Below are positions 3,959 through 63,694 of a DNA stretch of 64,000 nt, one piece after another. Both the position numbers and the translations under genes were made by a program. Positions within the stretch are counted from its first letter, which is position 1, and each line of letters starts with the position of its first letter. The notes beneath the pieces were generated by a model. That model was not told the DNA's origin, did no database searches, and was given only the letters and a program-made list of their open reading frames with translations. The stretch spans positions 31,372,001 to 31,436,000 of the forward strand of contig OZ024759.1 of assembly GCA_964016885.1 (NCBI GenBank), written 5' to 3'. The stretch comes from Eledone cirrhosa. Taxonomy: Eukaryota.

Positions 3959-4024
3959 AACAAGTAAGACCCCGACGGCTGAGCTCAAGCCGTTTCGACG
4001 GCTAATTCTGTATATATATATAGT

Positions 4025-4342
4025 GAACTAGTAGTAAAACCACTAATGAGAGAACTCCTACATACGTGTGAATGGATGAATGTAAACGACGTTTTCAAAG
4101 CTGAATCCAGCAATAATGGTAAATGTATAAACGCACACATATATGTACACAAACATATATATATATGTTTGTGTACATATATGCGTGCGTTTGTGTATTC
4201 ACTGATTTCGTTAAATTTAAGAAAGTCATGTTAAATTTATACATTTACCATTATTGCTGGATTCAGCTTTGAAAACGTCGTTTACATTCATCCATTCACA
4301 CGTATGTAGGAGTTCTCTCATTAGTGGTTTTACTACTAGTTC
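4025..4342. repeat. Inverted repeat with about 105-bp near-identical arms and a nested hairpin in the spacer
   Basis: 4025-4131 is the reverse complement of about 4236-4342. The ORF track shows the identical peptide MRELLHTCEW... on both strands. Confidence 0.85.
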
Positions 4343-4910
4343 AGTTGACTGTGTGGATGAGAGTGTTATTAAGTTTGGCTTAGCCATACACCCAAATATA
4401 TCAGTAGATTTCAATTGAATGATGAATAACTGACCCTATGTATTGCTATAATTAATTTATGTAACGTCTCTTCCAATTTCAAATACTACTCTTTCATCAA
4501 CACCTAATGTAATTTTCACTGGATTCAACTACAGCTTGGATTTCATATCAAAATACCTCTCTCGTCTTTCAAATTACCTGACAGCGTGTATTTAAAGGGA
4601 TTACAATTGAGTCAAATTAGAAAGAACAATGGACATCTCTGAAGTGTAATTCGCGAAGCAGATAACAACAGGATCCTCTCACTAAGTAATCATACGCTAT
4701 AGAAACAGAGACACAAGCAGAAGTAAAATCTCTCACAAATCCCATTGTTTCTACCTTATCTAAGGATAAATATATGGAAGAGCCAACCAAGAAGGGAGTA
4801 GATGTCTAAGTCGTATCTAGACGTTATATATATATATATTTGGATTGCAGCTCCTGATTATTACGGGAATTCTATAAGAATCCAGCTTCTATAATTTTTG
4901 TCGGAAGCAG

Positions 4911-5519: not shown

Positions 5520-5818
5520 GCTTTCGCGATCTTCAGGTTCATGATATGTGGTGACAGTCGAGTTTGCAATTTTCAACTGTGAAAATTGACAGTTGAAAAT
5601 TGCAAACTCGACTGTCACCACATATCATGAACCTGAAGATCGCGAAAGCATGAAAGTACTTGTTCAATTAACACTTAGAATTTAATATTCTATCATACTA
5701 TTTCATTATAATACCATTATATGTATTTTAAAGGATTGTAAATAAAACGAGTAAATCAGACAAAGTTGGAATTCCTCTTATTAATATAATCTTCTATACA
5801 CAATCATACACACCCGTG
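5520..5818. mobile_element. Partial fold-back element with hammerhead; same family as 47837-48255
   Basis: 5520-5580 is inverted against 5589-5649. The right arm continues to 5818. Flanked by TA-rich microsatellite. Confidence 0.8.
5628..5666 (+). ncRNA. Minimal hammerhead ribozyme
   Basis: tgaac CTGAAGA t-cgc gaaa gca-t GAAA g-ta-CTT gttca. Stem II is weakened relative to the 48099 copy. Confidence 0.55.
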
Positions 5819-5834
5819 TATATTTACCTATCTA

Positions 5835-14991: not shown

Positions 14992-15381
<390 letters not shown>

Positions 15382-15481
15382 ATGCTCTGGCTCGTTAATT
15401 TATTAACCTGCCGTTGAACCACATTGGCATATGGTTGGACAATACATGTGTCCCTTGTGCGTGTAGGGATATATACTTTAT

Positions 15482-25052: not shown

Positions 25053-25524
25053 TAATGCAATTATTAGTAAGAGTTGAAATCAATGCATGCAAGATTTAGA
25101 CTTCGCAAAGACGAAAGCCTGAGATTTCGACATGTTCTAAGAGTTTCAGGATACAGGAAAAAAACAATTACATAAGGCAAACAGAAAACTACATCTCTAC
25201 CTCGTCAGTCACCCTGCTGGCGTAGAGTTTCGCACATTAAGTTATTAGGGTCGTCAAGTATGAAATTTGTAGAAATGTGTTGTTTTTTTCCTACAAATTT
25301 CTACAAATTTCATACTTAACGACCCAATAGTTTCTACAACAGATTGGAGAACCGATCTGTTGATATGATGCTAACAAAACAAAGAATAGTTTTTTTTTTA
25401 ATTTTAATTTTGGGGCTTATAAGCAAATTTTAAGTATATATACCGGCTCTGCATGACACCCTACCATTGTATTGAGCTAAAGTACAACTAGTAAATGAGT
25501 AAGATGTACATTCTTTAATATTAT

Positions 25525-30035: not shown

Positions 30036-30135
30036 TTCTTTCCTGAGACATTCTAACCACATGCCCATAGTATCGGAGCTGTGATCTCTCAGCTCCGATA
30101 CTATGGGCATGTGGTTAGAATGTCTCAGGAAAGAA
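30036..30135. repeat. About 100-bp palindrome; arm also present at about 28122-28165
   Basis: ttctttcctgagacattctaaccacatgcccatagtatcggagctg / cagctccgatactatgggcatgtggttagaatgtctcaggaaagaa. Confidence 0.9.
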
Positions 30136-41439: not shown

Positions 41440-42438
41440 CAATTGACCACTGACCTGCTTGTCAACACTTTGTGAAAGAGAGAAAGTAAGTTAAGGAGGG
41501 ATATCAAATTACCATACCCCTTTCAAAGTCTCAGGACCCTTGTGTTTGTATAAGGATTTTATTCACATATCACAAGTTTTTTCGCCTAACACATAACATA
41601 CTTTTAGATCAAGAATGTTAAAATCCGAAAATTTACAAACACTAGTTTGTTTGAGGTTTTTTATGAGTGAAGGTGATCACCTGAAGTCTTCCCAAAAATT
41701 ATTATTACATGTAAACGAGTTTTGTAGGAAGAATGGCTATTAAATGCGATCATTGTTACAATAAAGGCGTTTAATATCTGCAGTGAAGTTGCAGAGGATT
41801 ATAAGCTCATAAAATAGGATTTGCAAATTCAATAGCTACCCACTTTCGTTGCTAATTACGAGAAGTTTCTAGCATCTAAAAACATGAAACGGTGAAGGTT
41901 TTGTTGATTTTTTGTTTTTTCATTATCGGGATTTAACCTCACAGATGTTTATACGCAGTTGTGATTGCAAATACTTTTAAATCAATGTGGATTTGAAATG
42001 GATGTAACCATTGTCAGCAAGGTTTTCAATAGGGGATATTTTATACGGAGATTATTCCAGTAATGGTGGACGTGAAATAGTTAAATGGACAATTATAATC
42101 AAGATAAAATAATAGATAAAAGGTATATTAACTCATTGACAAAGAATCATTGTCCTCTGTTCTGGTTCTATCTTGTATCGCCAAACTATTTTTTCTCTTT
42201 ATTGTTCTATATTTTGCGAGCAGTTGTTTTTTCTTTTCATGTTTTTGTTTTTTTGCTATTTATCCATCCATATATTTATACATTTATATATATATATACA
42301 TATATGTATGTATGTGTGCACACACGCAGACGTATATATATATACATATATATATACATATATATATACATATATATATATATACAATTATAAATGTACA
42401 TATATACGTGTGTGCGCACACACGTATATATGTACATT

Positions 42439-42499
<61 letters not shown>

Positions 42500-42691: not shown

Positions 42692-42884
42692 ATAGGAACA
42701 AATAAGACCCCGACGGCTGAGCACAAGCCGTTTCGACGGCTAATTCTAGTCCAGAATTAGCCGTCGAAACGCCTTGAGCTCAGCCGTCGGGGTCTTACTT
42801 GATCCTATTACCCACTCTACTACCCTAAGTATTGAGTACTTTGGTGCGTTATGGTCCACCTGGTTCCTTACCACATTTCTTTCG

Positions 42885-45464: not shown

Positions 45465-45547
45465 GTTATTCCGGGTTGAATCGGAGGTAACCACAGTAAG
45501 TAAGGTACTCAATACATAGCAGAGTATAAAAGTTTTAATATAGATGA

Positions 45548-45596
45548 GATTCTACAGGACTAGAACTGTTTCATTCATTAGAAATCATCAGGAATC
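45548..45596 (-). ncRNA. Type-I hammerhead ribozyme (mirror of 45599-45647)
   Basis: Exact reverse complement of the plus-strand motif. Confidence 0.75.
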
Positions 45597-45598
45597 AG

Positions 45599-45647
45599 GA
45601 TTCCTGATGATTTCTAATGAATGAAACAGTTCTAGTCCTGTAGAATC
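45599..45647 (+). ncRNA. Type-I hammerhead ribozyme
   Basis: gattc CTGATGA t-ttc taat gaa-t GAAA cag ttctagtc ctGTA gaatc. 5-bp stem I, 4-bp stem III, GUA site. Confidence 0.75.
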
Positions 45648-45650
45648 TCA

Positions 45651-45729
<79 letters not shown>

Positions 45730-45733
<4 letters not shown>

Positions 45734-45999
45734 CTAATCTGAGTTTTTCGAATATTAATAATAACATTCGATTCGTTTGCAATTATGCAAACAAGCCTCA
45801 ATTTTATAGCCATGTCAGTAGAATGAACCCTTCATTCTTGCTCTTGTGTTGGCATGTGAACAGAACTGCAGACACTAATGACAACACAAGAGCAAGAATT
45901 AAGGGTTTATTCTACTGACATGGCTTTAAAATTGAGGCTTGTTTGCATAATTGCAAACGAATCGAATGTTATTATTAATATTCGAAAAACTCAGATTAG

Positions 46000-46003
<4 letters not shown>
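45730..46003. repeat. About 270-bp palindrome between (TA)n tracts
   Basis: About 125-bp arms with few mismatches. A partial third arm lies at 46132-46192. Confidence 0.9.
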
Positions 46004-46272: not shown

Positions 46273-46607
<335 letters not shown>

Positions 46608-47729: not shown

Positions 47730-47835
<106 letters not shown>

Positions 47836-47986
47836 ACACGGGTGTGTATGATTGTGTATAGAAGATTATATTAATAAGAGGAATTCCAACTTTGTCTGAT
47901 TTACTCGTTTTATTTACAATACTTTAAAATTTATAATGGTATTATAATGAAATAGTATGGTAGAATATTAAATGTTAAGTGTTAAT

Positions 47987-48025
47987 TGAACAAGTACTTT
48001 CATGCTTTCGCAATCTTCAGGTTCA
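47987..48025 (-). ncRNA. Minimal hammerhead ribozyme (mirror of 48099-48137)
   Basis: Exact reverse complement. Confidence 0.7.
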
Positions 48026-48098
48026 TAATGTGTGGTGACAGTCAAGTTTGCAATTTTCAACAGTTGAAAATTGCAAACTTGACTGTCACCACACATTA

Positions 48099-48137
48099 TG
48101 AACCTGAAGATTGCGAAAGCATGAAAGTACTTGTTCA
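48099..48137 (+). ncRNA. Minimal hammerhead ribozyme
   Basis: tgaac CTGAAGA t-tgc gaaa gca-t GAAA g-ta-CTT gttca. GAAA tetraloop on stem II and palindromic AAGTACTT stem III. Confidence 0.7.
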
Positions 48138-48249
48138 ATTAACACTTAACATTTAATATTCTACCATACTATTTCATTATAATACCATTATAAATTTTAA
48201 AGTATTGTAAATAAAACGAGTAAATCAGACAAAGTTGGAATTCCTCTTA

Positions 48250-48305
<56 letters not shown>

Positions 48306-50154: not shown

Positions 50155-50254
50155 GAGAGATATGTAAAATCCGGACCGCGGTGCCAAGCGGTTTCGGCTT
50201 GTGTGTTCAGCAAGCCAAAACCGCTTGGCGTGCAGTCTGGGTTTTACATATCTC
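50155..50254. repeat. Imperfect palindrome with a hammerhead 3' half
   Basis: Minus strand: caagcc GAAA ccgc ttggcacc gcgg TC cggatttt. Confidence 0.7.
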
Positions 50255-50342
50255 TATACCCACTCTGCATCTCCCCATGAATTGAGTACTCCGATTATTA
50301 GTGGTATCCTTCATCTCAGGACCGCATACTATCTCACTCCTC

Positions 50343-63463: not shown

Positions 63464-63623
63464 TATATAGATATATATATATAATAGTAGAACACTAGTG
63501 GGTTATATCCGCAGTAGTAGAGCACTCAGTCCATGGGACGAGTTTGGTGGAAGTAGTTCCACAACGGTTAATTCACCATACCAAGAACAAATGTTTCACC
63601 TTATTCGTAACCTCAGCTAGACC

Positions 63624-63660
63624 GAGCTGATGATCCGACTAAGGTGAAACATTTGTTCTC
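63624..63660 (+). ncRNA. Minimal hammerhead ribozyme inside imperfect palindrome 63550-63694
   Basis: gag CTGATGA tcc gactaa ggt GAAA c-attt-GTT ctc. The mirrored arm has a decayed core. Confidence 0.6.
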
Positions 63661-63694
63661 AGTAATGGTGAACTAATTGTTGTGGAACTACTTC

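Follow-up and report, generated by a model that had tools for sequence, protein, structure and literature searches.

Penelope-like elements (PLEs) are the closest relatives of telomerase. Their layout includes partial tandems, an adjacent inverted and 5'-truncated copy, a tail of 30-40 bp at one end and microsatellite targets, with a frameshifted ORF1 noted in some types, and how the inverted structures arise is, in the accessible part of the same account, described as undefined (Craig et al. 2021, PMC8557442). For rotifer Penelope elements, the available text of another study reports palindromes where the inverted copies join and proposes self-priming on an antisense template (Arkhipova et al. 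2013, PMC3846280). For its part, the protein of an anole PLE cuts and extends both target strands in vitro, uses two reverse-transcription start sites, one on either side of the tail, and has a predicted dimeric form; in the accessible sections of that report, these findings are not linked to inverted copies (Frangieh et al. 2024, PMC11167929). The inverted pLTR (pseudo-LTR) architecture is thus already known for PLEs.

The palindrome of the window and its parent element

The window (the whole stretch of 64,000 nucleotides analysed here) consists of AT-rich, microsatellite-rich DNA of a 3.0-Gb genome. It contains a perfect inverted repeat at 47867-48257, with arms of 195 bp and a 1-nt spacer at 48062, whose left arm extends to 47830 and so includes 37 bp that have no counterpart on the right arm. 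The palindrome reported in the preliminary description is therefore real, although its bounds, given there as 47837-48255, had to be corrected, since the element spans 47830-48257. The copy at 5520-5649, with which it had been compared, has perfect arms of 61 bp and a spacer of 8 nt (5581-5588), so that the contrast in spacer length noted earlier holds; its right arm continues to 5825 and matches 47830-48120 at 90.9%. The feature is almost certainly an inverted pLTR pair of an endonuclease-bearing PLE, and its parts are as follows.

47830..48061, minus strand: long arm, consisting of the 195-bp pLTR plus the 37-bp tail of the PLE; the same sequence flanks the RT/GIY-YIG body in the full-length copies L032 and L031
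47830..47866, minus strand: 37-bp tail, present on the long arm only
48062..48062, no strand: centre base of the head-to-head joint, within the near-palindromic element start AC-A-GT and the putative transcription start region (TATA-like box at -31)
48063..48257, plus strand: short arm, the 195-bp pLTR without tail, running into (TA)n
48099..48137, plus strand: minimal type I hammerhead-like core from a motif scan (stem I, CTGAAGA, short stem II, GAAA, palindromic stem III region)
47987..48025, minus strand: mirror copy of the hammerhead-like core, from the same kind of scan
47787..47829, no strand: (GA)n run adjoining the tail
48258..48300, no strand: (TA)n target repeat on the tailless side, in which no target-site duplication is readable
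5520..5825, plus strand: second insertion of the same family but of another subfamily, with a 61-bp inverted arm (5520-5580), an 8-nt insert copied from the pLTR start (5581-5588) and a full pLTR plus tail (5589-5825)

The (GA)n run probably arose by expansion of the CT/TA repeat that belongs to the element and, in full-length copies, follows the tail.

The arm belongs to a repeat family, for which 40 scored candidates gave 52 matches. Partial tandems of pLTRs, direct or inverted, were present in L031 and L032, and L032 consists of an inverted 5'-truncated copy followed by pLTR, tail, coding region, 3' UTR, pLTR and tail, with a unit of 4.2 kb. The autonomous copy encodes an RT and then a C-terminal GIY-YIG endonuclease; the GIY-YIG match (E 3e-6) lay above its curated cut-off, and the RVT_1 match (E 3e-6, 27.5 bits) fell under its own cut-off of 29.6. 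No matching solved structure was found for the RT/EN protein. In L202 (G000:C1:21871800-21881000) and L214 (C1:110664200-110672000) the coding capacity is divided between two frames, of 449 and 728 aa, in contrast with the single ORF expected of endonuclease-bearing (EN+) PLEs and with the Neptune/Nematis clades. The 728-aa product contains a CX4CxxC linker that fits the CX2-5CxxC linker found before the endonuclease in Neptune/Nematis, and by this motif the element is probably Neptune/Nematis-like, the clade being a lead. A T-TTT-TTA heptamer in the -1 frame follows 15 nt after the opening of the second frame, and programmed frameshifting at this slippery sequence in the frame overlap is possible; no strong stem was predicted downstream of it. 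In L202, two copies of almost full length form a near-perfect palindrome of 8.7 kb, whose axis lies in the hammerhead stem I region and whose halves differ at 5 of 4310 columns. Elsewhere, at L037:1-3800, a copy of the family adjoins Rep/helicase reading frames, which from their motifs we take to be Helitron-like.

The family shares with the EN+ PLEs described in the available text of PMC8557442 and PMC3846280 the pLTRs, the inverted copy at the 5' end, the tail at one end only, the microsatellite targets and the order of RT and GIY-YIG, and its candidate hammerhead-like motif would correspond to the hammerhead motif in their pLTRs. In the loci inspected, the flanks of the insertions were mostly (TA)n, in line with the bias of EN+ PLEs for microsatellites or AT-rich DNA. 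Short palindromes in many dispersed copies within TA repeats are also features of MITEs or foldback DNA transposons; this identity was rejected because such elements have symmetric TIRs with fixed ends and a fixed centre, whereas here the ends are asymmetric, the centre differs between loci and the arm serves as terminal repeat to an element that encodes an RT.

The hammerhead-like core and its stem I were found by pattern, and the motif was kept in 125 of 161 arms. The predicted fold of the core contains stems I and II, with a z-score (-0.36) no better than that of shuffled sequences. Rfam scans gave no match to a hammerhead family, the only matches being of miRNA type, to simple repeats or hairpins and below the gathering scores. 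We regard the core as a candidate hammerhead-like ribozyme motif of the pLTR.

Head-to-head joints across the genome

Exact-pattern searches of the genome returned 547 head-to-head centres with a 1-nt spacer, 330 with spacers of 2-30 nt and 151 joints with a 4-nt loop, three classes that overlap slightly. The controls yielded 0 in every class, and since 547 exact 1-nt-spacer centres stand against none in the reversed control, this class of palindromes is not due to chance. A further 1438 copies carried the natural upstream sequence (3' UTR joint) instead of an inverted joint. In 27 of 30 copies with upstream sequence, a TATA-like box was located 31 bp before the A of ACAGTTG, and from this spacing we infer that the axis of the joint corresponds to the 5' end of the RNA. 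Of 48 longer spacers, 35 had both strands starting with CAACTG, and in only 2 of 65 cases was CAACTGT followed by the genomic next base, indicating that both arms stop at the same base. The centres themselves were highly varied between loci. Compared with the EN+ PLEs in the accessible literature (PMC8557442, PMC3846280), this family is distinguished by more than 1000 joints at one base behind a TATA-like box and by many stumps made of the pLTR only.

The position of the axis bears on the proposal of Arkhipova et al. (2013), in which self-priming on an antisense transcript yields head-to-head palindromes. This mechanism was published for the same architecture (PMC3846280, in the part available), and palindromic loci could be read on either strand. 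However, the axis lies 31 bp behind a TATA-like box of the sense strand, both arms stop at the same base, and antisense self-priming alone explains neither the one-sided tail nor the 1 : 1 ratio of centre bases (see below). We consider it quite improbable as the origin of the joints studied here.

Agreement between the arms of a locus

The comparison of arms used the loci that stood first in the list of each class, namely 50 of the 1-nt class, 50 with longer spacers and 30 of the loop class; after the removal of 3 duplicates and the addition of the 2 window copies, the sample comprised 129 loci. Arms were compared at the 84 of these that had 140 or more comparable columns. Over 12 polymorphic columns, the two arms of a locus disagreed in 64 of 980 subfamily-marker cells (6.5%), as against 41.6% for shuffled pairs (2000 shuffles, lowest value 32.4%), and arm divergence was 2.0% within loci and 5.0% between loci. 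The tree of left and right arms, which the preliminary description had proposed as the check, gave the same picture: the distance of an arm to its own partner was 0.031, while distances to other loci were 0.080 on the same side and 0.081 on the other. Thus, arms pair by locus and not by side. Exclusive sister arms were found at 33 of 84 loci, and the partner was the strict nearest neighbour at 24 of 84 (21 ties); exclusive pairs are few because young copies are nearly identical. Longer insertions behaved similarly. Among 26 long loci, 19 were resolved as head-to-head pairs (the other 7 being cut, rearranged or of the short type), and their arms differed at 137 of 24,987 columns. The divergence of the tails, 43 of 2157, was set aside as a measure of conversion relative to that of the arms, being affected by end effects and by unfiltered subfamily variation.

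The two window copies fit this pattern. The four differences reported between them, at pLTR positions 18, 32, 35 and 50, are each mirrored in both arms of their own copy, as had been described; positions 18, 32 and 35 are subfamily markers. The variant at position 50 is rare, with 15 exact matches genome-wide. Among the 10 palindromes in which both arms cover this position, only the 5520 copy carries it on both arms, and in the other 9 the partner lacks it. An apparently frequent arm difference at position 141 was set aside as an ascertainment effect, the query itself carrying a rare allele there.

Taken together, arms that pair by locus and centres that vary between loci indicate that the palindrome is made anew at each insertion from one source. 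This part of the earlier proposal, rebuilding at each insertion, was borne out; fold-back synthesis of a single cDNA, in the form in which it was stated, was not, since 32 of 67 loci have the wrong orientation for it (see below). Gene conversion between the arms, the other possibility raised, is at most a minor contributor: variants private to a locus were found on one arm in 103 cases and on both in 15.

A related alternative is that the two arms derive from templates unrelated to each other, or from a palindromic master that is inherited, and are made alike after insertion by conversion. The 15 private variants on both arms and the 17 of 84 loci with identical arms could be read in this way, but the remaining 67 loci retain differences, whole-arm conversions amount to at most about 0.54 per locus lifetime, the shared variants of the long pairs are spread along the arms and not concentrated near the axis, and centres as varied as those observed are unexpected from an inherited master. 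This explanation is accordingly very improbable.

It was also considered whether the symmetry could be an artefact of assembly or polishing. Short reads mapped to the wrong place could, in polishing, have levelled the arms or patched them, and neither the short reads nor the contigs searched included one that spanned the locus at 47830-48257 and phased its arms. At the family level, however, the axis is crossed both by independent contigs built from short reads and by raw Illumina reads, and polishing does not produce tails on one side only, inserts of varied sequence or arms of 4 kb with few differences. As a general explanation an artefact is extremely doubtful, and for the 47830-48257 copy, given the one-sided tails and the family-level crossing of the axis, it is unlikely.

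A separate observation concerns pLTR positions 32-35 (48094-48097 in the window, and their mirror), where linked two- or three-base switches to the allele of another subfamily occurred on one arm only at about 6 of 84 loci. Such patches may be products of polishing. Their use as proof that two different RNAs were copied was abandoned, as the combination C18+G32/A34 was found at only 4 places, each of them in a palindrome, and at none of these did the two arms match fully. An error of polishing or ectopic conversion could be the cause with equal likelihood, and a template switch is another candidate.

Polarity of the joints and a proposed two-cDNA model of insertion

One arm with the tail and the other ending at position 195 were found in 81 of 129 palindromes, and the end point sites of both arms are TA-rich in the template. 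This asymmetry gives each such locus a polarity. If the palindrome arose by fold-back, the tailed arm would have to be the first strand, because the tail cannot be copied from the tailless arm, and the centre base, the strand carrying the loop and the arm with the longer 5' end would all be fixed as a result. None of the three was. Among the 32 tail/195 loci of the 50 in the 1-nt class, the centre base was T in 16 and A in 16, and in the 15 youngest tail/195 loci it was T in 9 and A in 6. The loop was on the tail strand in 9 and on the tailless strand in 8 of the 17 tail/195 loci among the 30 of the 4-nt-loop class. In the 19 long pairs, the longer 5' arm was the tailless one in 8, the tailed one in 10 and neither in 1, and the 8 pairs with a longer tailless arm include some that are only 0.08-0.14% from their nearest relative. 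Pooled, 32 of 67 loci were opposite to the fold-back expectation, with no age trend. Since the three markers are each near 1 : 1, simple fold-back of a single cDNA fits poorly.

A more elaborate version would be that synthesis of a single cDNA begins at the tail site and proceeds to the 5' end of the RNA, after which the cDNA folds back, copies itself as far as the TA-rich 195 site and joins the target, its polarity being masked later by inner flipping or trimming. It would account for the matching of arms by locus and for the 15 private variants on both arms, including position 50 of the 5520 copy; moreover, the 4-nt-loop class (151 joints) resembles a snap-back product, and positions 186-195 are TA-rich and could end synthesis on the (TA)n target. 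On the other hand, a 1-nt loop is impossible within one strand, so that the commonest class (547 joints) could not form in this manner. The wrong polarity of 32 of 67 loci shows no dependence on age, and very young long pairs are among the 8 of 19 in which each arm has sequence absent from the other. Frequent exchange between arms is further opposed by the predominance of one-armed changes after insertion (103 versus 15, and 9 of 9 at position 50). The upper bound obtained for flipped loci was 33% (p = 0.008 against 32/67), a bound that is not strict, as it assumes that each flip converts a whole arm. Fold-back with subsequent flipping thus appears unlikely, although less so than the other alternatives. 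Nevertheless, inserts of snap-back type (TGTG-AAAA...) were seen among the joints, which shows that cDNA ends fold on themselves at times and that both routes may operate.

The reading that we favour, with moderate confidence, is that the palindrome was formed at insertion by two separate cDNAs, which had a common source but different start sites and were annealed head to head. In this scheme both strands of the (TA)n target would be cut by the endonuclease, and reverse transcription would be primed by either cut end on RNA from a single source locus, either one RNA read twice or two sister RNAs. That there is a single source locus follows from the matching arms, and the tail/195 asymmetry matches two start sites, as found in vitro for the anole protein, whose cutting and extension of both strands and predicted dimer also favour this reading. 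These sites, TA-rich and 37 nt apart (195 and just beyond 232), would produce one tailless and one tailed arm. Starts in the 5' pLTR would run off the 5' end of the RNA after about 200-235 nt, both cDNAs ending in ...CAACTGT. Their 3' ends might then pair through ACTGT, which is nearly self-complementary and would give four base pairs with a T-T mismatch in the middle, and be filled in, with repair of the mismatch in either direction leaving T or A at the centre; alternatively, joining might occur by end-to-end jumps with short copied inserts, followed by fill-in. Longer cDNAs that stop early would be joined by microhomology of 2-7 nt and give the long asymmetric inverted copies. At 12 joints of long pairs, overlaps of 2-13 nt were observed.

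In twin priming of LINE-1, both cut ends likewise prime cDNA and the cDNAs are joined by microhomology. There, non-overlapping parts of one RNA are copied and an inversion results, whereas both cDNAs proposed here would cover the same 3' region and result in a duplication. Poseidon of the green anole resembles our family, as read here, in its two start sites around the tail, in the cutting and extension of both target strands and in its AT-rich targets, but its start sites are not homologous to the target, while both end points are TA-rich here (PMC11167929, in the sections available). A search of the accessible literature listed no two-cDNA model for PLE inversions, and the accessible portion of a retrozyme preprint (10.64898/2026.07.22.740005) does not treat the origin of these inversions.

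Some evidence tells against the two-cDNA reading. The start sites of the anole element differ in kind from those proposed here, snap-back inserts are present, and only a minority of loci have exclusive sister arms. Later flipping by recombination between arms, or trimming by central deletions, could yield all three symmetries after fold-back. Likewise, fold-back or conversion fits the 15 private variants on both arms, position 50 of the 5520 copy among them, as well as an unseen source does; no source copy for the position-50 variant was seen among its 15 exact matches.

Whether PLE integration in general consists of two simultaneous target-primed reverse transcriptions from double-strand-cut ends, started at two sites on RNA of one source and joined via the self-complementary first transcript bases, is a wider claim that may equally well hold or fail. 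If true, a single mechanism would account for the inverted pLTR, for the tail on one side only and for the abundance of pLTR-only palindromes, the 1 : 1 centre base would be the scar of a T-T mismatch, and it would be understood why genomes like this one are strewn with short perfect palindromes in TA repeats. A young family with more than 1000 joints at one base and with polarity markers (tail, centre base and loop strand) makes the open mechanism of PLEs countable, and the two-cDNA view would yield countable predictions for the existing in vitro system.

Other palindromes were observed in the window. That at 15112-15480 is of another family, whose relatives occur as tandem arrays with a unit of about 484 bp and as inverted pairs that have two end points, 132 and 233-239; one weak match to the endonuclease region was found in 1 of 20 loci, and the family is possibly a non-autonomous PLE or a retrozyme-like element. 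The palindromes at 896-1243 and 45543-45652, also of other families, have hammerhead-like cores (CTGATGA...GAAA) on both arms. Nine further short-spacer palindromes are located at 4024-4343, 25243-25329, 30036-30135, 42386-42445, 42695-42805, 45731-46002, 46276-46475, 50156-50255 and 63550-63694.
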